64,000 bases of DNA from Hyphomonas sp. (GTDB taxonomy: Bacteria > Pseudomonadota > Alphaproteobacteria > Caulobacterales > Hyphomonadaceae), in contig NZ_JAGYJH010000001.1 of NCBI RefSeq assembly GCF_018402285.1, positions 83,589-147,588 of the forward strand. The letters are read 5' to 3'. The notes below the pieces were generated by a model. That model worked only from the letters and a program-made list of their open reading frames with translations, had not been told where the DNA came from and did no database searches. Of the stretch, positions 2,620 to 18,532 are shown one piece after another. Both the position numbers and the translations under genes were made by a program. Numbering within the stretch: the stretch's first letter is position 1; the number at the start of each line of letters is the position of its first letter.

Positions 2620-3543
2620 ATGGCCTCCCAGAACGCCGCCGCCCTCGTCATCCTGCAGGACGGCAAGATCCGCCTCGAACGGTATGGCAACGCCTTCACG
2701 CCCAGCGGCCGCTGGACCAGCTTCTCCGTTGCCAAATCCCTCACCTCCACTCTTGTTGGCGCCGCGATCGTGGACGGACATATCGAGAGCCTCGAAGACC
2801 CCGTCACGAAATATATCCCCGGTCTGGCCGGCTCCCCCTATGACGAGGTGACAATCGCCCAGCTCCTGACGATGACCTCCGGCGTCGCCTGGAACGAGGA
2901 CTATGAAGACCCCAATTCCGATGTCGCCCGCTTCGACAGCGCCGAGCCTGTCGCCGGTGAGATCGGCATCGTCACCTATATGCGCGGCCTCGAGCGCGCC
3001 CATCCCCCCGGCGAAGTCTGGAACTACTCCACCGGTGAAACAAACCTCATCGGCGTCCTCGTCAGCGCCGCCACCGGCAAGCCCGTCGCAGACTATCTCT
3101 CCGAAAAGATCTGGGTGGCCTATGGCATGGAACAGGACGCCACCTGGCTGCTGGGCCAGGACGGCCACGAAATCTCCGGCTGCTGCATCCAGGCCTCCAC
3201 GCGCGACTTTGCCCGCTTCGGCCAGTTCATCCTCGACGGCGCCATGACAGATGCGGGCCCCGTTGTCCCCGCCGGCTGGCTTGCCGCCGCCACCGTCAAG
3301 CAGGCAGACATCAGCGAGCCCGGCTATGGCTACGGCTATCAGTGGTGGACCTGGGACGAGGGCGCCTTCATGGCCGACGGCATCTTCGGCCAGGGCATCT
3401 TCATCGACCCGGCCCGCAACCTCGTGATCGCGTCCAACGCCAACTGGACCACCGCGCTGGGCCTGCGCGATGGCGAATGGCCCGCCCGCTCGGACTTCTA
3501 CCGCAAGGTTCAGGCTGCAATCGACGCCGAAGCGGCGGAGTAA
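2620..3543 (+). CDS. Serine hydrolase, beta-lactamase/esterase fold (core ORF)
   Basis: 307-aa ORF with an SxxK motif (FSVAKSLTSTLVG). No recognisable RBS lies before ATG 2620. Confidence 0.8.
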   Translation: MASQNAAALVILQDGKIRLERYGNAFTPSGRWTSFSVAKSLTSTLVGAAIVDGHIESLEDPVTKYIPGLAGSPYDEVTIAQLLTMTSGVAWNEDYEDPNSDVARFDSAEPVAGEIGIVTYMRGLERAHPPGEVWNYSTGETNLIGVLVSAATGKPVADYLSEKIWVAYGMEQDATWLLGQDGHEISGCCIQASTRDFARFGQFILDGAMTDAGPVVPAGWLAAATVKQADISEPGYGYGYQWWTWDEGAFMADGIFGQGIFIDPARNLVIASNANWTTALGLRDGEWPARSDFYRKVQAAIDAEAAE

Positions 3544-3831
3544 AGCCTCACCAAAACCATGTGTAACCGGGGACATGGGTTACAGGTGTCATGGTATTTT
3601 CCGTGTGCAGCTGGAGTTGACGCGCCTCGGCAAATCCACCAGACGCGACGCCTGCGAGCTCCTCCGGGAACTGACGGAAACCACCAGTACCCGCTTCTGT
3701 CACAACATGTCCTCCGGGCTGGCCTGCCCCATGGCCTGCCCTGCCCCCGCCACTTCGCAGGGGAGGAAAAGGACGCTTGCCTCCCTGTGTCAAATATGTT
3801 AGTGAACGCTCACTTTTAAGGAGAAGGCCCC

Positions 3832-4800
3832 ATGCCCGTCATCCGCCTCGACCTCGCCGCCCTCATGAAATCCGGCCAGATCACGCCCGAGGAGGCCACC
3901 CGGCTTGCCGCCCTCGCCCTGCCTGGCACGCGCGCCGGCCTGGCGGTCAACCTGCTCCTGATCTTCGGCGCCGTCGCGGTCGCCATTGCCGCCATCGCCC
4001 TTGTGCCCAATGCGGCCACCGGCCTGATGCTCGCCCTCGGCGCCATCACGGGCGCGGAAATCCTCCGCCGCCTGAAGACGGGTCCTGTCACCGGCGATAG
4101 CTTTGCCCTCCTCGCCACTGCCCTTGCCCTCATGGGCACACTCGGCCTCGCCGGCTGGACCGCCTGGCAGTTCCAGGACGCCCCCGCCACCGCCCCTGCC
4201 GTGCTGGTCACCTTCGTGCTCGCCGCCGGCGCCCTCTGGTATTGCTCCGCCTTCCTCGCAGCCCTGGCCGTCCTCGCCCTCGGCGCGGTCTTCGGCACAG
4301 GAACGGGCTACTGGCATGCCAGCTACGGCCTCTTCGTGGAGGAGCCGGTGATCACGATCGCTGTCTTCGGCGCCCTCGCCGCCGGCCTCTATCAGCTGCG
4401 CGCAACGCTCCCGGAAGCCTGGTCCAATCTCACCACTGTTGCGGCCCGCACCGGTCTTGTCCTTGTCCATTTCGGCTTCTGGGTCGGCTCGCTCTGGGGC
4501 GATGTCATCGGCGACAGCTGGCTGCCCTATGGTTCGCGCTCGGAGGCTGGCCGCATCCTTCCCTGGATATTCTCCCTCGGCTGGGCCGGCTTCTCCCTCG
4601 CCCTTGCCCTGCGCACCCCGCGCGGCGGCTTCCTGTCAGTCAGCGCCCTCGTCTTCCTCGCCATCCATGGCTACACCCAGTATTTCGAGACCTTCGGCGC
4701 CGAGCCGATGAGCCTCCTCATCGCGGGCCTCGTCCTGGTTGGCCTCGCCATCGGCGTCGCCCGGTTCGTCCGCCGGGGCGAGCTCAAGCCTGACGGATGA
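3832..4800 (+). CDS. Polytopic membrane protein, function unknown
   Basis: 322-aa ORF. AAGGAG RBS about 7 nt upstream of the ATG. Many Ala/Leu/Gly-rich hydrophobic segments. Confidence 0.6.
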   Translation: MPVIRLDLAALMKSGQITPEEATRLAALALPGTRAGLAVNLLLIFGAVAVAIAAIALVPNAATGLMLALGAITGAEILRRLKTGPVTGDSFALLATALALMGTLGLAGWTAWQFQDAPATAPAVLVTFVLAAGALWYCSAFLAALAVLALGAVFGTGTGYWHASYGLFVEEPVITIAVFGALAAGLYQLRATLPEAWSNLTTVAARTGLVLVHFGFWVGSLWGDVIGDSWLPYGSRSEAGRILPWIFSLGWAGFSLALALRTPRGGFLSVSALVFLAIHGYTQYFETFGAEPMSLLIAGLVLVGLAIGVARFVRRGELKPDG

Positions 4801-5393: not shown

Positions 5394-6206
5394 ATGACCC
5401 AACGAGACCTTGAAGGCCGCACCGCTCTGATCACCGGTTCGGCCACCGGCCTTGGCCGCTCGATCGCCCTTAAGCTCGCCGAACGCGGCGCCAGCGTCAT
5501 CATCAACTGCACCAAGTCGATTGCCGATGGCGAAGCCACCGTCGCCGATTGCCAGGCCGCCGGCGCCCAGGCCCGTCTTGTCCCGGCGGATATCTCCACC
5601 GATGAAGGCTGCCAGAAGCTCGCCGATGCCGCCGCCCAGGCCGGCCGGCTCGACATCCTCGTCAACAATGCCGGCATAACCAAACATGCCCGCGATCACA
5701 GCGACCTGGACGCCCTCAGCCGGGAGGATTTCCTCAACCTCTACTCTGTCAATGTCGCCGGGCCCTTCATCCTTCTGCAGAAAACCAAGGACCTGCTGGT
5801 CGAGGCCCACCGCCAGACCGGCCGCGCCTCTGCCGTCCTCAATGTCTCCTCCATTGCCGGTGTGGCCGGGGTTGGCTCATCGGTCGCCTATGCCGCCTCC
5901 AAGGGCGCGTTCAATACCATGACGATCAGCCTCGCCCGGGCGCTGGCCCCCGCTATCCGCGTCAACGCCGTCTGCCCGGGCTTCATTGGCACCCGCTGGT
6001 TCAAGGACACGATGAGCGAGGAGCAATACACGAAGATGGAGGCCGGGGTGGCCGCCTCGGTCCCCCTGAATGTCGCCTCCGGCCCGGACGACATTGCCGA
6101 TTCCGCCCTGTTCCTCGTCAGTGACGCCTCCCGTCACATAACTGGTGAAACCCTGCTGGTGGATGCCGGCATGCACCTTGGCTATGCCCCGCTGAAGGCA
6201 CGCTGA
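5394..6206 (+). CDS. SDR family oxidoreductase
   Basis: TGSATGLGRS cofactor motif, NNAG, and YAASK catalytic motif. 270 aa. Confidence 0.9.
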   Translation: MTQRDLEGRTALITGSATGLGRSIALKLAERGASVIINCTKSIADGEATVADCQAAGAQARLVPADISTDEGCQKLADAAAQAGRLDILVNNAGITKHARDHSDLDALSREDFLNLYSVNVAGPFILLQKTKDLLVEAHRQTGRASAVLNVSSIAGVAGVGSSVAYAASKGAFNTMTISLARALAPAIRVNAVCPGFIGTRWFKDTMSEEQYTKMEAGVAASVPLNVASGPDDIADSALFLVSDASRHITGETLLVDAGMHLGYAPLKAR

Positions 6207-6403
6207 CTCGCCCTCTGCCTGATTTCTGGACGCTGCAGCGCACAATTGCGAGGCAAGGGCATCTGCATCTGCCTAAAACAGCGGCGTTCCGCCCCCTCTC
6301 GCCGGTGTTCCCGTCAGGGCAGCATCGGCAAGACCGGGAAAGCCCGGCACTTTCGTCCATGGCGCTCAAGCGGGAGCGTGATCAAAAGACGGGGTTAACA
6401 CGC

Positions 6404-7075
6404 ATGCGTATGAAATTTCTTCAGGCGGGAGTCGCACTGGCTGTCATGGTGGCGGCTGCCGGCACTGCCTCGGCCCAGGGTGAGTTCTCGGGCAACGTCG
6501 CTCTGACCACAGACTATGTCTGGCGCGGTGTCTCCCAGTCCAACGGCGACATGGCCATCTCCGGCGGCTTCGACTATTCCAACGGCATGTTCTATGCCGG
6601 CACCTGGGCATCGAACGTCGATTTCGGTGACGCGTCCGACACCAACGTGGAAATCGACTTCTATGGCGGTCTTGCCGGTGAACTCGAAAGCGGCATCAGC
6701 TGGGATGTCGGCGTGATCTACTACGCCTATCCCGACGCGGAGGAATCCGACCTGGACTTCGTCGAAATCAAGGGCGCGCTCGGCTATGCCTTTGAAGGCG
6801 GCCTCGCTGTCGGCGGTGAAGCCTATTACGACATCGACAACAAGAACCTCTATCTGAACGCCACGGCAGGCTATTCCCTGTCCGACGCCTTCAGCGTGGA
6901 CGGCAGCGTCGGCAACTACCAGTTCGATGCTGGCGGCGACTACACCAACTGGTCGCTCGGCGGCACCTACTCCGCCCTCGGCTTCGGCTTTGACCTGCGC
7001 TACTGGGATACCGACATCGACGCCACCGACATCGCCGACGAGCGCATCGTGTTCACCATTTCGCGCTCAATGTAA
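6404..7075 (+). CDS. Outer-membrane beta-barrel protein (TIGR02001/TorF-like family as recalled)
   Basis: Signal peptide MRMKFLQAGVALAVMVAAAGTASAQ. VALTTDYVWRGVSQSNG..FYAGTWASNVDF..EIDFYGG pattern. Start is 6404 or 6410. Confidence 0.75.
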   Translation: MRMKFLQAGVALAVMVAAAGTASAQGEFSGNVALTTDYVWRGVSQSNGDMAISGGFDYSNGMFYAGTWASNVDFGDASDTNVEIDFYGGLAGELESGISWDVGVIYYAYPDAEESDLDFVEIKGALGYAFEGGLAVGGEAYYDIDNKNLYLNATAGYSLSDAFSVDGSVGNYQFDAGGDYTNWSLGGTYSALGFGFDLRYWDTDIDATDIADERIVFTISRSM

Positions 7076-12481: not shown

Positions 12482-13756
12482 ATGAGCCCGACAAACCGGA
12501 CTTCCCTGGCAATTGTCGGCGCGGGCCCAGCGGGCCTCACCCTTGCGCAATTCCTGCGTCTTAAGGGGTATTCGGCAGCCACCCTGATCGAACAGGCAGA
12601 CCGTGTCGGCGGAAAATCCGACAGCCTTGACCTTGGCGACATCGTTGCGGAGATGGGCACGTGTTACGCCACAGGCGCCCACAAGGATGTTGTCGGGTGG
12701 ATGAAGCGCCAGGGCGGTGATCTGCGCATCCTGCGCAAGACGACGATCGATGGCGCCGGCCTGAAGGATTATATTGGCGATGCGGGCGGCCCGCCGCTGG
12801 GCGCGCAGGTGCTCAGCTATCTGGCAAAGCGCGACCGCCTTCTGAAACAATTGAAAAGGACGCCGGACAAACCTTCCCTTCTGGCCGAAGCGGCCATGCC
12901 GACGGATGCCTGGCTGGCTGAAAACAAGCTGCCGAAAATGACCCGGCTGATGTACCGCGCCATCACCTCACTCGGCTACGGTTACCTCAACGAAGTCTCG
13001 ATCTATCAGTCGATGCAATGGGTCGATCACCACACCATCCTCAGCGGGGCCACCGGAAAGCTGATCATGCCGGCGGCCGGATGGTCGGATTTCTGGAATG
13101 TCCTGTCGCAGAATTTCGATGTCCGCCTGTCCAGCAGCATCCTGAAGATCGAGCGTTCGGGACAAGACAGCCTGTTGCACTTCAAGGATGGAACCCAGCT
13201 TGCTGCAGGCGCCCTTGCCTGCACCATCCCGATGGATAACTGGGCCAGTCTGGTGAATAATCCGACGGCAGATGAAACAGCCGTCGCCGGCGCGATCACC
13301 TGGAAGGGCTATGCTACGTCGCTGATCGTGGTGGAGAACTGGTTCACCAGCGAGGACATCCGCTCCTTCTCCAAGGCCTTCCTGCCCGGCTCCTATCCCG
13401 GCCAGCTGATCTCGGCGCGCTATGAAGGTTACAGCCCGGATTTTGGCGGGCATCTCTATGTCACCGGCCAGATCCCCGGCGACTACACCCTTCCGGAACT
13501 GCGCATCTTCCTTGAGCGCGACCTGGCAGACCTCGGCGCCAGTCTCGTCAATGTGGTCAACGCAAAGACCTGGCGCTACTTTCCCCATTATGACCTGAAA
13601 GCCATCAGCGCGGGCCTCCTGGGCACCATGCGGGGCATGCAGGGCCAGGCCGGCACCTGGTATACCGGCGCCACCTTCTCGCATGAATCTGTGGCGAATG
13701 TGTCCCGCTTCAACAAGGCGCTCACGCCCGCATTACTGGCGCGCCTGAAGGGCTGA
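12482..13756 (+). CDS. FAD/NAD(P)-dependent oxidoreductase (amine-oxidase-like fold)
   Basis: N-terminal Rossmann motif LAIVGAGPAGLTLAQFL. 424 aa. Confidence 0.75.
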   Translation: MSPTNRTSLAIVGAGPAGLTLAQFLRLKGYSAATLIEQADRVGGKSDSLDLGDIVAEMGTCYATGAHKDVVGWMKRQGGDLRILRKTTIDGAGLKDYIGDAGGPPLGAQVLSYLAKRDRLLKQLKRTPDKPSLLAEAAMPTDAWLAENKLPKMTRLMYRAITSLGYGYLNEVSIYQSMQWVDHHTILSGATGKLIMPAAGWSDFWNVLSQNFDVRLSSSILKIERSGQDSLLHFKDGTQLAAGALACTIPMDNWASLVNNPTADETAVAGAITWKGYATSLIVVENWFTSEDIRSFSKAFLPGSYPGQLISARYEGYSPDFGGHLYVTGQIPGDYTLPELRIFLERDLADLGASLVNVVNAKTWRYFPHYDLKAISAGLLGTMRGMQGQAGTWYTGATFSHESVANVSRFNKALTPALLARLKG

Positions 13757-14569: not shown

Positions 14570-14600
14570 GCGCCCGCGCTCGTCTCCCGAGCGCGGGCGC
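14570..14600 (+). terminator. GC-rich hairpin downstream of azoR
   Basis: Perfect 13-bp stem GCGCCCGCGCTCG / CGAGCGCGGGCGC with a 5-nt loop. The trailing U-tract is weak. Confidence 0.55.
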
Positions 14601-14672
14601 CTTGCGCTTGGGAGGTCGCCAATCCGTTGCTTGCCAAGCCAAAGACCACGCCTTAACGCTGCCAGGCAAGGT

Positions 14673-14706
14673 GCCGGCGTGGTGGAACGGTAGACACAGG
14701 GGACTT
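14673..14706 (+). pseudogene. 5' half of a disrupted intronless tRNA-Leu(UAA) (acceptor 5' strand to U34)
   Basis: GCCGGCG TG GTGGAACGGTAGACAC A GGGGA CTT. Its partner strands are 3.6 kb downstream at 18330..18381. Confidence 0.8.
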
Positions 14707-14749
14707 AAAATCTGTTGGCAACCCTTCACGTCTGCACGGGGTCGAGTGG
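14707..14749 (+). other. Degenerate tRNA-Leu 3'-half-like sequence at the left junction
   Basis: AAAATCTGT is identical to the start of the 3' exon of the element-borne tRNA. GGGGTCGAGTGG resembles its T arm GGGTTCGAGTCC. There is no pairing with the GCCGGCG acceptor strand. Confidence 0.45.
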
Positions 14750-14861
14750 AAAAAGTAGAAACAAGAACAGGAGGTTGTGGAGCGCTTAGAAGAATGAAAA
14801 ATTTGCAAGGGCAGAAGACTAGGAGCCAATTGGGAGCCAATACAGTCAGAAAGCCTCGCAA

Positions 14862-15196
14862 GCGGACGTGGTGGAATCGGTAGACACAACAGACTTAAAC
14901 CATGTGATTGAGTGCCCCGGTGGAAATGCCGGGAGTAGAACTGCTCAAATTCGGGGAAAGCTAAGGGTCCAGATCGGACCGATGCCAATCCCGAGCCAAG
15001 CCTGGCGAAAGCCGGGAAGGTGTAGAGACTAGACGGGCAGCATCTAAGGTCAGCGCGCTGACTATGATGAAGGGATAGTCCAGACCACAAACGGTGCCTT
15101 TTGCTTCTGCAGTCTGGGCGTCGGCGGTGAAAACCGTAGTCGGTAAGAAAATCTGTCGGGGGTATCCCCGTGCGGGTTCGAGTCCCGCCGTCCGCA
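14862..15196 (+). tRNA. tRNA-Leu(UAA) interrupted by a group I intron. Exons are 14862..14896 and 15148..15196; CCA is encoded at 15197..15199.
   Basis: Exons join to GCGGACG TG GTGGAATCGGTAGACAC A ACAGA CTTAAAA TCTGT CGGGGGTATCCCCGT GCGGG TTCGAGT CCCGC CGTCCGC A. All stems are fully Watson-Crick. Confidence 0.9.
14897..15147 (+). ncRNA. Group I (IC3-like) self-splicing intron, 251 nt, no ORF
   Basis: Inserted between U34 and A35 and ends in G. Core strings CCAAUCCCGAGCCAAGCC, GGGAAGGUGUAGAGACUAGACGGGCAGCAUCUAAGGUCAG and GAUAGUCCAG resemble the cyanobacterial tRNA-Leu intron core as I recall it. Hairpins GUCAGCG/CGCUGAC and CCAGAC/GUCUGG fit P8 and P9. Confidence 0.85.
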
Positions 15197-15502
15197 CCAT
15201 TCTTGTTTGATCCCGTGTCTCTGCGCTCAAATAAATCGTGCTCATGGTTGCGGTGCGGTTCGAGCTGGCTCCTCGCGCCCGGACCATTCTCTCCCACTGA
15301 AACGAAGACTGAGCGCTGGGGCGCCGGTCTCAGGCATTTCTTGGTTTGACGGAGGGAACGACGGCAAGTCAGCAGCATGGCGACAGACCCGCCCTTGGGG
15401 AGCTTTGATCGTCCGTCATTTCGTATCCCTTGGGTTTACCAAGTGCGATGCATTCAAGATACCGAGCTTATCAAATTTCGAAAGCCAGCTATTTTGTATC
15501 CC

Positions 15503-16300
15503 ATGACGCGACAAAACGAGACAAAGCTAAAATGGCTGCTGGAGACCGTACTGCCGGGTCGGCTGGTCGATACGCCGACGCTGGAGCGTCATGGCATCAC
15601 GCGCATGCTTGCCCACAAATACATAGACAGCGGCTGGCTCGAACCTGTCGTGCGCGGACTCTACCGACGTCCGCAGGCCGACGTTCGCAGCGAAGACTGG
15701 CAACTCGTCGTGCGCTCGCTGCAGCACGGTATGGACTATTCATCAGTCGTCGGCGGACGCACTGCGCTGGAGCTACAGGGGCTCGCTCACTACGTGCCGA
15801 TGCGAGGTGATCAGGACGTCCACCTTTATGGCGATGCGCACCCGACCTGGCTGAAGCGGCTGGATGCGGCTGGACGCTACCGGCTGCACAGCACCAAACT
15901 GTTCGACATGAGCGCTGATGAGGAGACGACGGAGGTCGACTCACCCGTCGGCCCGCTAAAGTGTTCAACGCCGGAGCGTGCCATCCTCGAGCTGCTGGAT
16001 GAGCTGCCAAGGTATGAGAGCGCTCATACAGTCGATAAGGTCTTTGAAGGCCTCGCCTCTGCGCGCCCCCGCAGACTGGAGAAGCTGCTGGCGTCATGCA
16101 CGAGCATCAAGGTGAAGCGCCTCTTCTTCGTCTTCGCCGACAAGCACGGCCATGCCTGGCGTCGTCATCTCTCGCCAGAACGGTTCGACCTCGGTTCGGG
16201 GCCTCGTGCCCTCTTTGAGAACGGCCACTACCATCCACACTACGCCATCTCCGTGCCGCCGGAACTGATGCCGCAAAGTGAGGCTCGCGATGGTGCGTGA
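15503..16300 (+). CDS. abiEi: Type IV TA system AbiEi family antitoxin / transcriptional regulator
   Basis: N-terminal wHTH-like KLKWLLETVLPGRLVDTPTLERHGITRMLAHKYIDSGWLEPVVRGLYRR, then VVGGRTALELQG. 265 aa from ATG 15503. Confidence 0.8.
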   Translation: MTRQNETKLKWLLETVLPGRLVDTPTLERHGITRMLAHKYIDSGWLEPVVRGLYRRPQADVRSEDWQLVVRSLQHGMDYSSVVGGRTALELQGLAHYVPMRGDQDVHLYGDAHPTWLKRLDAAGRYRLHSTKLFDMSADEETTEVDSPVGPLKCSTPERAILELLDELPRYESAHTVDKVFEGLASARPRRLEKLLASCTSIKVKRLFFVFADKHGHAWRRHLSPERFDLGSGPRALFENGHYHPHYAISVPPELMPQSEARDGA

Positions 16301-16433
16301 GCGATATGTGGATCAGGTCCGGCTGCTGGTCGATATTCTGCCAGCCGTAGCGGCAGAGGACGACTTCGCCCTGAAAGCCTGTGCGGCGATCAACTTTCAT
16401 GTTATATTACTGATCGGGAAGATTTTAGCATAA
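16290..16433 (+). pseudogene. Truncated AbiEii/AbiGii nucleotidyltransferase toxin (first ~37 codons only)
   Basis: Start overlaps the abiEi stop. MVRERYVDQVRLLVDILPAVAAEDDFALKACAAINF matches the conserved toxin N-terminus (..ALKGGTAINLF..). Similarity ends near 16400, where an AT-rich junction begins. Stop at 16431. Confidence 0.7.
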
Positions 16434-16458
16434 ATATACCGCCAAGAGCTTACAACTA

Positions 16459-16519
16459 CCCGTTCGGGAACATTTTGCTTGACGCCAGCCCGCTAATCAC
16501 ATATCTTCCCGTTCAGGAA
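16459..16519 (+). promoter_or_regulatory. Putative sigma70-like promoter flanked by two 12-bp direct repeats (candidate HTH operators)
   Basis: TTGACG (16479-16484), 17 nt, TATCTT (16502-16507). CCCGTTCGGGAA at 16459-16470 and CCCGTTCAGGAA at 16508-16519. Confidence 0.4.
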
Positions 16520-16523
16520 GATA

Positions 16524-18005
16524 ATGATAATGACACCAACAGATATTGGAATCACCATACGCGCCGCACGAAAGGCGCAAGGCCTGCGGCAGGACGAACT
16601 TGCGGCTGCGGCCAATGTCGGCGTGCGTTTTCTGATCGAGCTCGAAGCCGGCAAGGAAACCGCCCAGCTCGGCAAGACGCTGGCCGTTCTGTCTGCGCTC
16701 GGTATCGACGTGGCGCTATCCACCCCTGACGAGGCGCGGCGCATGACGCGGCGGCTGATCGTCTGGTGGAACGGCGCGCGTGTTGGTCAGCTCGCCCTGA
16801 ACGAATACGGCGAACCTGAGTTCACCTATGCAGCCGACTGGCTCGCAACCTCGAACGCGAGGCCGGTTTCAGCGTCCTTGCCGCTGCAGCCCGAACCCTT
16901 CGACCGGAGGGCAACACTGCCCTTTTTCGAGGGTCTTCTGCCGGAGGCGGCCCAGCGCACTGCGATTGCGCAGGCGCTTGGCATTTCTGAACGAAATGAG
17001 TTCCGACTCCTGGAAGAAATTGGCGGCGAGGTCGCCGGGGCGATCGAAGTCTGGCCGGAGGATATGGAACCTGCTGTAGCAGGGTCGCCAGAGGCATCCC
17101 GAATTCTGAGCGATGACGAACTGGTCGCGCTGATCGACCGGTTGCCAACGCGCCCCATGCTGGCGGGCGGCGAAGACCGCTTGCGGCTTTCGCTCGCTGG
17201 CGCCCAGTCGAAACTGCCTGTGATCTGCAAGGATGGCCAGATCGCGCTGCCCGCACCAGGGCAGCCAACAACCCATATCCTGAAGCCCGAGATCGCCCGG
17301 TTCGAGGGCACTGCCGAGAACGAGGCCTTCTGCATGCGGCTCGCCTGCGCCATCGGGCTTGACGTTGCTCACGTCCAGTATCGCAGCATCAGCGACAAAC
17401 GGTTCCTGCTGATCGAACGCTATGACCGGCAGACCGGCGAAGACGGGAAGACGATGCGTCTTCATCAGGAGGATTTCTGCCAGGCGCTTGGTTTCACGTC
17501 AGCGCGCAAATATGCAAGCGATGGCGGGCCGGTTTTCCGGGACTGTTTTGCCCTTATCCGGCGGGTAACGACGCGACCCGCAGCCGAAACGCTGAAGCTG
17601 CTGGATGCGGCCCTGTTCAACGCCATCATCGGCAATGCCGACGCCCATGCGAAGAATTTCAGCCTGCTCTATCTGCCGGACCGCACGCAGCTCGCACCGC
17701 TCTATGATCTTCTCTCCACCGTTGCCTATCCGGACCTCAGTCAACGCTTCGCCATGAAGATCGGCGGACGCCGGACGCTGGAGGAGATTTACCCCGCCGA
17801 TCTCGACAAGTTTGCAAGGGACATCGAGATCCGCGCACCGTTCGTTCGCAGACGGATGGGGGAGATTGCAGAGGCCGTTATCGAGCAATCGGATGGTGTT
17901 GCGGCCGCGCTTGTGTTGGCGAGTGATCGGCGACAGCTGCTCAATGAGATATGCGATACCGTTGCCGGGCGAGCGAAGTTACTACTGGATCGGCTCAAGT
18001 CCTGA
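16524..18005 (+). CDS. hipA: HipB-like XRE HTH domain fused in frame to a HipA family serine/threonine kinase toxin
   Basis: Residues 1-73 are an HTH (IRAARKAQGLRQDELAAAANVGVRFLIELEAGK). From Met74 (ATG 16743) it is HipA: LSLAGAQSKLPV P-loop-like motif, GNADAHAKNFSLLY catalytic loop, YDLLST. There is no stop codon between the two parts. Confidence 0.85.
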   Translation: MIMTPTDIGITIRAARKAQGLRQDELAAAANVGVRFLIELEAGKETAQLGKTLAVLSALGIDVALSTPDEARRMTRRLIVWWNGARVGQLALNEYGEPEFTYAADWLATSNARPVSASLPLQPEPFDRRATLPFFEGLLPEAAQRTAIAQALGISERNEFRLLEEIGGEVAGAIEVWPEDMEPAVAGSPEASRILSDDELVALIDRLPTRPMLAGGEDRLRLSLAGAQSKLPVICKDGQIALPAPGQPTTHILKPEIARFEGTAENEAFCMRLACAIGLDVAHVQYRSISDKRFLLIERYDRQTGEDGKTMRLHQEDFCQALGFTSARKYASDGGPVFRDCFALIRRVTTRPAAETLKLLDAALFNAIIGNADAHAKNFSLLYLPDRTQLAPLYDLLSTVAYPDLSQRFAMKIGGRRTLEEIYPADLDKFARDIEIRAPFVRRRMGEIAEAVIEQSDGVAAALVLASDRRQLLNEICDTVAGRAKLLLDRLKS

Positions 18006-18064
18006 TGGATACCCAGTCACCGTTACGCAATACCGAAACCGGTTCGCCCAATATCAGGATGGCG

Positions 18065-18190
18065 CTACTCTCCAACTGCGCGATCGCGCTGCTTGAGCAT
18101 GCCGACAAGAGCGGCGGTCTTGGACTGACGCTTGATTGCCTGCACATGCTTCTCGGCCGAAGACTCTTTCGGCCCGGATTTCTGTCTCAT
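18065..18190 (-). CDS. 41-aa basic ORF of unknown function at the right arm of the insertion
   Basis: ATG 18190 is preceded by AGGAG with 5-nt spacing. MRQKSGPKESSAEKHVQAIKRQSKTAALVGMLKQRDRAVGE. Below the ORF-track size cutoff. No family assignment is possible by eye. Confidence 0.3.
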   Translation of the reverse strand: MRQKSGPKESSAEKHVQAIKRQSKTAALVGMLKQRDRAVGE

Positions 18191-18329
18191 CTTCACTCCT
18201 CGTATCAGTTACGATGAGCCAGAAATCCTCCTTAAGCAATTTAGCCGAACTGTCTCATGGTCGCTGACGGGGAACAGCCATTTTTTAAGCCTTTCTGCAA
18301 GTGTTTGCAAAAGGCATTCTAGCCCTCTT

Positions 18330-18381
18330 AAAATCCCTAGGCCCAACGGCCGTGCCGGTTCGAATCCGGCCGCCGGCACCA
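18330..18381 (+). pseudogene. 3' half of the disrupted tRNA-Leu(UAA) (A35 to CCA)
   Basis: AAAA TCCCT AGGCCCAACGGCCGT GCCGG TTCGAAT CCGGC CGCCGGC A CCA. The acceptor strand is the exact complement of 14673-14679. Confidence 0.85.
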
Positions 18382-18532
18382 GTTTCACTCTGATCGGGTA
18401 TCGCCGCGCCTACATGCGTCACGCTCAAGGCTGGTTGCGCCGCAGTTTCGGGGGGAGTGCCCCCGTTGCGCCATTTGCCCTTCTGCGAAAAATCGTTAGC
18501 TTTCCCGGCAAGAAGATCGCGGGGAAACGCAC

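Follow-up and report, generated by a model that had tools for sequence, protein, structure and literature searches.

A window of 64,000 nucleotides (NCBI RefSeq contig NZ_JAGYJH010000001.1, positions 83,589 to 147,588) from the alphaproteobacterium Hyphomonas sp. contains, within an insertion of about 3.6 kb, a tRNA-Leu(UAA) gene interrupted by a group I intron. The insertion lies between the two halves of another tRNA-Leu(UAA) gene, intronless and resident at this locus, and the complete intron-bearing gene very probably rode on the insertion that split the resident gene in its anticodon loop. The interest of the case lies in this genomic setting, the intron alone being a representative of a catalogued class.

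The island-borne gene consists of a 5' exon (14862..14896, + strand) with U34 as its last base, an intron of 251 nt (14897..15147, +), and a 3' exon (15148-15196) with an encoded CCA (15197-15199), the two together occupying 15148..15199 (+). When introns are allowed, ARAGORN reads the genomic sequence as tRNA-Leu(taa) i(36,251), with the intron at U34|A35, between positions 3 and 4 of the anticodon loop, which is the position that defines the class Leu.3Ug. The stretches 14862-14896 and 15148-15196, once joined, give an 84-nt class II tRNA-Leu(UAA), accepted by ARAGORN, in which all stems are Watson-Crick and the discriminator is A; these same exons and stems had been proposed in an earlier interpretation made from the letters alone (the sequence-only reading). 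The 251-nt group I intron with a terminal G which that reading placed at U34|A35 is likewise borne out by covariation in 58 sequences. In the Rfam search that this reading had proposed, run locally on 901 nt (14600-15500), the model Intron_gpI (RF00028) matches 14887-15105 over its full length (1-253), with 49.4 bits and E = 2.2e-11, against a gathering score of 50. The tRNA-Leu intron core strings that it quoted are present in the window sequence, and its claim that the intron, which is IC3-like, holds neither an open reading frame (ORF) nor a homing endonuclease agrees with the analysis. In the 251 nt no homing-endonuclease ORF, no sense-strand ORF and no protein domain were found, and the antisense ORF that runs over the tRNA gene (14653-15378) has no Pfam match.

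The intron-bearing gene shows up only with introns allowed or with E-value thresholds. Default ARAGORN reports no tRNA in the whole 64-kb window, and the Rfam scan at gathering thresholds gives no match anywhere in it, the latter because the intron score falls just under the gathering score. Intron-bearing tRNA-Leu(UAA) genes are, in this sense, invisible to standard annotation.

The intron fold was drawn by hand on the window sequence, as helices P1 to P9 together with the anticodon stem, and its pairs were then scored over an alignment of the window gene with 57 homologous tRNA-Leu(UAA)-plus-intron genes (n=58). The helices are P1 (14894-14898/14908-14912), P2 (14916-14922/14927-14933), P3 (14941-14946/15035-15040), P4 (14951-14956/14989-14994), P6 (14995-14997/15019-15021), P6a (15001-15006/15011-15016), P7 (15025-15031/15076-15081), P8 (15041-15044/15066-15069) and P9 (15084-15088/15139-15144). 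The window copy has no mismatch among the drawn pairs, and over the alignment 94.1% of the cells are paired, against 77.8% in the shuffled control and 29-43% with the partners slid. Compensatory changes are seen in 54 of the 77 pairs (within the core helices in 5 of 6 pairs of P3, 2 of 6 of P7 and 3 of 4 of P8); P3, P4, P6 and P7 are paired in 100% of the cells and P8 in 99.6%. Moreover, the U.G wobble at the 5' splice site (U35.G49) is found in 58 of 58 sequences, and the last intron base, the G at 15147 (alignment column G286), is invariant. Judged from its sequence, the intron would be able to splice: the precursor tRNA would fold into P1-P9, an external guanosine would attack after U34, held in the U.G wobble of P1, and the terminal G would then occupy the guanosine site, the exons being joined into the 84-nt tRNA.

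The resident gene, an intronless tRNA-Leu(UAA) of Hyphomonas type, is present in two pieces. The 5' half (14673..14712, +; tRNA positions 1-40), cut just past the anticodon loop, forms the left junction, and its 40 nt are 100% identical to the relative L126 and 97.5% identical to L123, L124 and L125. The right junction (18327..18381, +) is made up of the right copy of a direct repeat (18327-18335) and the 3' half (positions 32-83 plus CCA), and its 55 nt are 98% identical to L123-L125. The two halves overlap by 9 nt, CTTAAAATC; this direct repeat, read directly from the sequence (left copy 14704..14712, +), comprises the anticodon loop and 2 nt more, and it occurs once in the empty sites of the relatives. 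When the halves are rejoined, ARAGORN accepts the result as tRNA-Leu(taa). Neither junction is a tRNA as it stands: ARAGORN finds none at 14673..14712, where the left half runs on as TGTTGGCAACCC..., a degenerate sequence that leaves the anticodon stem mismatched, and the right junction comes without any 5' half. No island-borne fragment rebuilds the target at either junction (no ARAGORN call), and the same is true at 11 other loci.

The inserted DNA (14713..18326, +), delimited by synteny and by alignment with the empty site, is absent at this locus in three Hyphomonas-like relatives. The gene order Gcw_chp, alanine dehydrogenase, amine oxidase, Flavodoxin_2, [tRNA-Leu], Na/sulfate symporter, DUF2490 and thiolase is common to the window, H. 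neptunium and two metagenomic relatives, the amine oxidase (12482-13756) being 74-76% identical to Hyphomonas proteins and 83-92% to those of the metagenomic relatives. An intact intronless tRNA-Leu(UAA) stands directly upstream of the symporter gene in H. neptunium (L123, L124) as well as in L125; in the latter it lies directly between Flavodoxin_2 and the symporter, and in H. neptunium a TM_HPP/CBS gene is also found between these two. The contig of L126 ends inside the same resident tRNA. The surroundings in the window are those of an ordinary chromosome, with genes for propionyl-CoA carboxylase, alanine dehydrogenase, thiolase, enoyl-CoA hydratase and methionine aminopeptidase. As is expected of a tRNA-targeting island, the target is split, each junction carries a copy of the direct repeat, and relatives keep an empty site that is intact. 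The remark in the sequence-only reading that the copy might be riding on an insertion is thus supported by the split resident tRNA, the 9-bp repeat and the empty sites of the three relatives.

The insertion contains, from a point 149 nt inside its left end, the intron-bearing tRNA, followed by a gene for an AbiEi-type antitoxin/transcriptional regulator (15377..16300, +; Pfam AbiEi_3 1.4e-38, AbiEi_3_N 1.6e-22), a gene for an HTH-HipA-like kinase (16524..18005, +; Pfam HipA_C 4.1e-54, Couple_hipA, HTH_3) and about 320 nt with small ORFs only, for which no Pfam family was found. Exact-match look-ups of the HipA and AbiEi proteins gave no match, and it was the homologues of the amine oxidase that placed the host. 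A repeat of the 3' end of the island tRNA, as would mark an ordinary island boundary, was not found either, and this candidate boundary was rejected, the real one being the 3' half of the resident tRNA.

The intron-bearing gene is not native to the Hyphomonas-like chromosome. It matches the resident tRNA at 63 of 84 positions and differs at the other 21, and both its exons share 100% identity with those of a gene on the chromosome of a Rhodobacter sp. (L045), which belongs to a different alphaproteobacterial order. Over the whole gene the identity to L045 is 87%, the intron having diverged while the exons remained identical, which argues for selection on the exons. In addition, the next gene after the L045 tRNA is a homologue of the hipA of the window, with which it shares 74% nucleotide identity. 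The island tRNA would stand in for the resident gene, whose disruption is directly seen.

The same layout is found elsewhere. At 11 other loci the 5' half of an intronless tRNA-Leu(UAA) ends at the loop CTTAAAA or up to 4 bases past it; in each case the intron-bearing gene follows downstream on the same strand, and the locus has no intact intronless tRNA. The gap between the half and the intron-bearing tRNA is filled, in L004, L035, L036 and L089, by a tyrosine integrase of 408-442 amino acids (Pfam Phage_integrase and SAM-like), and tblastn places a full-length or nearly full-length integrase just upstream of the intron-bearing tRNA in L059, L104, L062 and L052. Furthermore, C-terminal remnants of the integrase lie directly upstream of it in at least 8 further loci (tblastn), among them a Bradyrhizobium plasmid, so that decay of the integrase is documented. 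The 149-nt spacer of the window, in which nothing recognisable is left, could be the end state of this decay. The island integrase was not found within the 8 kb examined around L013, L019, L034, L044, L114 and L115, which have short spacers.

Two side observations belong to these loci. In L114 and L044 the ORFs adjoining the intron-bearing tRNA look like fragments of large serine recombinases, their translations having been judged by eye, and some islands of the split-tRNA layout may use a different recombinase. L013 has two intron-bearing tRNA-Leu(UAA) genes, at 5517-5826 (+) and about 5990-6285 (-), which face each other across 160 nt; a truncated resident half at 6508 (-) precedes one of the two, and the pair may reflect two islands or a rearrangement.

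Several results weigh against the view that the gene arrived on a tRNA-targeting island. An integrase gene or remnant is absent from the insertion and from all 64 kb (by Pfam, and by tblastn with seven island integrases, which returned only noise), and the mode of insertion of the window copy is for this reason inferred from its relatives. Among 83 intron-bearing genes examined, about 60 have no island hallmark within 3 kb upstream, and many intron-bearing copies may be long resident. L045, the one locus whose kinship with the insertion extends past the tRNA, has no split resident tRNA within the 8 kb examined. As for the gene, its RF00028 score is 0.6 bit below the gathering score, and a promoter scan found no sigma-70-like promoter upstream of the island tRNA, a result that is not informative for an alphaproteobacterium. 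Seen beside its relatives, the window insertion would be an integrase-less and probably decayed member of a group of tRNA-replacing islands, or else one mobilised in trans by the integrase of that family, and the intron, itself devoid of a homing endonuclease, would have reached the Hyphomonas-like genome on such an island.

A further sample was taken by integrase similarity alone and comprises 84 loci, that is, 4 genomic contexts and 80 metagenome loci from an integrase-alignment scan. The integrase family is large, with at least 6761 matches at E <= 1e-20 among the 8000 candidates scored. One of the four contexts, a gammaproteobacterial chromosome (L127, CP129466.1), shows the full layout of tRNA-Leu(UAA) half, integrase and intron-bearing tRNA; the other three have an intronless tRNA-Leu(CAA) downstream of the integrase, and in 2 of these 3 a truncated half of tRNA-Leu(CAA) precedes the integrase as well. 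Target and replacement are defined here by the loops of, respectively, the truncated tRNA upstream of the integrase and the tRNA downstream of it. Targets with CTTAAAA are paired with an intron-split replacement in 19 cases by the strict pattern and in 24 by ARAGORN calls of tRNA-Leu(taa) plus intron, with about 6 more miscalled as Ser or Phe, and in no case (0) with an intronless tRNA-Leu(UAA). For CTCAAAA targets the replacement is an intronless TTCAAAA in 15 cases, an intron-split CTC in 3-4 (the C-1 class noted by Williams) and an unchanged CTCAAAA in 1 (L191); for TTCAAAA targets it is CTCAAAA in 2. The sister islands with CTCAAAA changed to TTCAAAA, that is, with loop position 32 altered, include L128, L129, L132, L134-L137, L139, L147, L168, L183, L184, L186 and L209, and the reverse pair occurs in L181 and L210. 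In L177 the upstream tRNA is intact. The replacement almost never keeps the contiguous loop of its target, the loops differing with one exception in about 46 pairs. In a rough neighbour-joining tree of the integrases the classes of target and replacement are interspersed, with a CTT/intron island, for instance, placed amid CTC/TTC ones; the tree is crude, and exchange of cassettes between islands could mimic independent events.

Two interpretations of this pattern have to be weighed. According to the first, a large family of tyrosine-integrase islands destroys tRNA-Leu at the loop and carries a complete replacement with a disabled crossover sequence, the intron acting as an immunity device and the integrase as the homing enzyme; UAA targets would then be answered with an intron in CTT|AAAA, and CAA targets with a C/U swap at position 32 or with an intron. 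The intron would shield the island's own tRNA copy from its integrase: as the intron sits inside the 9-bp repeat common to both junctions, the island tRNA would not be a substrate. The functional role of the intron is likely but unproven, since the tree is crude and cassette exchange could mimic independence, and the scheme as a whole is put forward tentatively, at a little less than an even chance. According to the second interpretation, the link between intron and island is a historical accident, an ancestral island having captured an intron-bearing gene that does nothing for it. All intron-bearing replacement genes are indeed homologous, and swapping of cassettes between islands could have spread a single capture, but the accident would leave unexplained why target and replacement loops differ in each class (an intron-split loop for CTT, TTC for CTC, CTC for TTC) and why the classes are interspersed on the integrase tree. 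We regard it as quite possible, while being somewhat inclined to doubt it.

Less can be said for the idea of a dead relic, in which the intron would no longer splice, the tRNA would not be made and another tRNA gene would read the UUA/UUG codons. The Rfam score just short of the gathering score, the lack of a consensus promoter and the loss of the integrase, a sign that decay has occurred, are what one would expect of a relic; against these stand the pairing of every core helix, the intact U.G wobble, terminal G and invariant core positions, the Watson-Crick stems of the tRNA, the selection on the exons indicated by L045 (exons identical, whole gene 87%) and the destruction of the resident gene, so that we hold this to be improbable. 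Even less probable is an insertion made by the intron itself, through reverse splicing or homing of the endonuclease type, or by a transposon, without any site-specific recombinase. The insertion point coincides with the intron's own site, the insertion has no recombinase gene and the 9-bp repeat resembles a target-site duplication, but the related loci have a tyrosine integrase at exactly this junction. The insertion as a whole was ruled out as an intron, for it has protein genes inside and none of its possible 3' ends is a G, as a spliceable intron would require; the transposon model was ruled out by the lack of terminal inverted repeats in the insertion, in which Pfam also detects no transposase, and the intron has no endonuclease ORF. 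The weakest alternative, that of an old, vertically inherited intron-bearing gene like that of cyanobacteria and plastids, with an unrelated decayed duplicate as its neighbouring fragment, is hardly credible: it would fit the many intron-bearing copies without an island hallmark within 3 kb and the tRNA-hipA adjacency shared with Rhodobacter sp., but not the three relatives (75-92% amine oxidase identity, same gene order) with a single intact intronless tRNA and no intron-bearing gene, nor the two resident halves flanking 3.6 kb with the 9-bp repeat, nor an island tRNA 21/84 away from the resident one and identical in its exons to the gene of another order.

Arrival on a tRNA-replacing island, which is the account preferred here, invites comparison with known systems. 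Islander-type islands have in common with the present one a tRNA target, a crossover in the anticodon loop, direct repeats at both ends and an intact empty site (PMC4383910); a tyrosine integrase at the junction is also shared, although it is found in the related islands and not in that of the window. The standard tRNA island carries a tRNA fragment that rebuilds the target (PMC4383910), whereas the present island leaves its target broken and brings a separate tRNA gene, itself complete, whose crossover sequence is interrupted by an intron or, in the Leu(CAA) relatives, changed at position 32. The logic is the same as that of homing group I introns, in which the intron-free allele is attacked at the insertion site and the intron allele lacks the recognition sequence (PMC3984707). 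The differences from homing are that no endonuclease or repair copying takes part, the tyrosine recombinase being encoded outside the intron, and that the outcome is the insertion of a whole island with a replacement gene instead of conversion of the resident gene. In the literature no description was found of islands with intron-bearing replacement tRNAs, nor any connection drawn between integrases and the group I introns of tRNA genes; as the library consulted is incomplete, this is weak evidence of novelty. The gene looks to be part of an undescribed variant of the tRNA-targeting islands.

Regarding the intron, the sequence-only reading had taken its combination with tRNA-Leu(UAA) to be documented for cyanobacteria and plastids, and unusual outside them. 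This view cannot be maintained. A scan of species representatives (one genome per species; pattern GACTT plus the P4/P6 core plus the J6/7-P7 core) gave at least 120 loci; among the 120 listed, 80 are tRNA-Leu(UAA) genes with an intron of 200-280 nt at U34|A35, and several more probably represent the same gene, called with its splice site in the wrong place. The hosts among the matches listed include the alphaproteobacterial types Phenylobacterium, Hoeflea, Brevundimonas, Paracoccaceae, Rhodobacter, Azospirillum, Reyranella and Bradyrhizobiaceae, and further Burkholderia, Paraburkholderia, Gammaproteobacteria, Acidobacteriota, Eremiobacterota, Bacteroidota, Planctomycetota and Bdellovibrionota. 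Such genes are also carried by Bradyrhizobium plasmids and by upwards of 1270 resistance plasmids from Enterobacteriaceae, Acinetobacter, Aeromonas and other hosts. A gammaproteobacterial tRNA-Leu(UAA) intron is said to have been published by Vepritskiy et al. in the Journal of Bacteriology in 2002. The intron is one more member of the widespread Leu.3Ug class, catalogued in 2020, and with so many alphaproteobacterial copies already known the taxonomic surprise is gone; the sequence-only reading had itself said that a catalogue of many closely related alphaproteobacterial copies would remove the novelty and leave the annotation unaffected. In the preprint of K. P. Williams (2020), 5292 intron-split bacterial tRNA genes were mapped, Leu.3Ug being one of four classical classes, and a seed that does not look cyanobacterial, Ncf2.Leu.3Ug, was supplied (10.1101/2020.01.27.920355).

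Kinship was judged by raw identity to the seed sequences of that preprint. The window intron is 76% identical to a tRNA-Thr intron (Mti5), 75% to Ncf2.Leu.3Ug, 64% to a tRNA-Arg(CCU)-type intron, 60% to the Azoarcus tRNA-Ile intron and 56.5% to the Leu intron of Synechococcus elongatus. By this measure it is not especially cyanobacterial-like, contrary to the likeness to the cyanobacterial/plastid intron that the sequence-only reading had seen in it. The tRNA-Leu(UAA) intron of cyanobacteria and plastids, reportedly described by Kuhsel et al. in 1990, shares with it the host gene, the site CUU|AAAA, a core of the subgroup type, the usual lack of an ORF, the U.G wobble and the terminal G; it differs from the window copy, besides the low identity, in that the latter has a P9 region of proteobacterial layout and would have been acquired on an insertion. 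Introns in Azoarcus tRNA-Ile(CAU) and Agrobacterium tRNA-Arg(CCU) were reportedly described by Reinhold-Hurek and Shub in 1992. These and that of Bartonella tRNA-Arg(CCU) are also small, ORF-less IC3 introns of the anticodon loop with the same core and 60-64% identity, but they lie in other tRNAs and at another position of the loop. The Bartonella intron self-splices, and its tRNA was also missed by annotation (PMC7717549). Williams' Leu.3Ug introns (Ncf2 seed) agree with the present one in class and helices as well as in the 75% identity; judging from its text, the preprint maps introns without describing their genomic context, and connects them neither with islands or integrases nor with split resident tRNAs (10.1101/2020.01.27.920355).

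The window is of general interest in that it shows one transfer of such an intron with both junctions intact, namely that of a whole intron-bearing tRNA gene into a resident intron-free gene. The patchy distribution of group I introns without homing endonucleases was first noted in the 1990s, and how they pass from one bacterial tRNA gene to another has been an open question ever since. The island layout provides a route, open to test, by which ORF-less tRNA introns may spread horizontally and, if the intron does confer immunity on the island, this would explain their patchy, horizontal spread in bacteria and plasmids.

Some minor features of the window may be added. Between abiEi and the start of hipA there is a 22-nt inverted repeat (16402-16423/16503-16524), possibly an operator, and near the right end of the island a 22-nt hairpin (18176-18197/18207-18228). 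Beyond the CCA of the resident tRNA, about 88 extra bases (18382-18470), with the CCA duplicated (GGCACCA...GCGCCATTTGCC), stand ahead of the sequence that in L125 and H. neptunium comes immediately after the tRNA; an earlier event at the 3' end of the tRNA may have left this stretch as a scar.

tRNA-Leu(UAA) genes with group I introns also occur in at least 73 predicted phage contigs among the IMG/VR contigs L211-L330, with a median GC of 36% and often within arrays of 3-22 tRNA genes. Among the matches listed, these genes are about 73% identical to the window gene; no island integrase was found in the phage contigs, and a tRNA half lies upstream in only one. The phage contigs were rejected as the source of the window island, tRNA arrays without the island integrase being a separate setting. 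The intron pattern also matches L032, from a metagenome-assembled genome labelled as a Methanosarcinaceae archaeon, where the split tRNA was not called; the contig is probably bacterial and mis-binned, a suspicion that Williams voiced about comparable cases.

Finally, two plasmids deserve mention. The plasmid NZ_CP094524.1 of Bradyrhizobium sp. ISRA443 (L002), which is conjugative and 317 kb in size, carries at 3533-4304 a tRNA-Leu(UAA) with a 204-nt intron (Rfam 45 bits), with a C-terminal integrase remnant just upstream and adjoining trb transfer genes. In pCTX-M3 (NC_004464.2, L001) the aac(3)-IId/tmrB resistance module holds, at 3834-4299, a complete tRNA-Leu(UAA) with a group I intron of about 221 nt (Rfam 36.8 bits), 95% identical as tRNA plus intron to the Bradyrhizobiaceae chromosomal locus L019. 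About 140 nt upstream of the plasmid tRNA lies GGACTTAAAAAGTCTTTTTTTCTACCAT, the same junction that in L019 follows a truncated resident tRNA-Leu half, and tmrB and aac(3)-IId lie just downstream (onward to 5808), where island cargo would be. This arrangement suggests an alphaproteobacterial island of this integrase family as the source from which the two resistance genes were taken up. The segment, which has no RefSeq annotation at the tRNA, is present in more than 1270 PLSDB plasmids and in 646 of 5426 complete E. coli genomes (about 12%).

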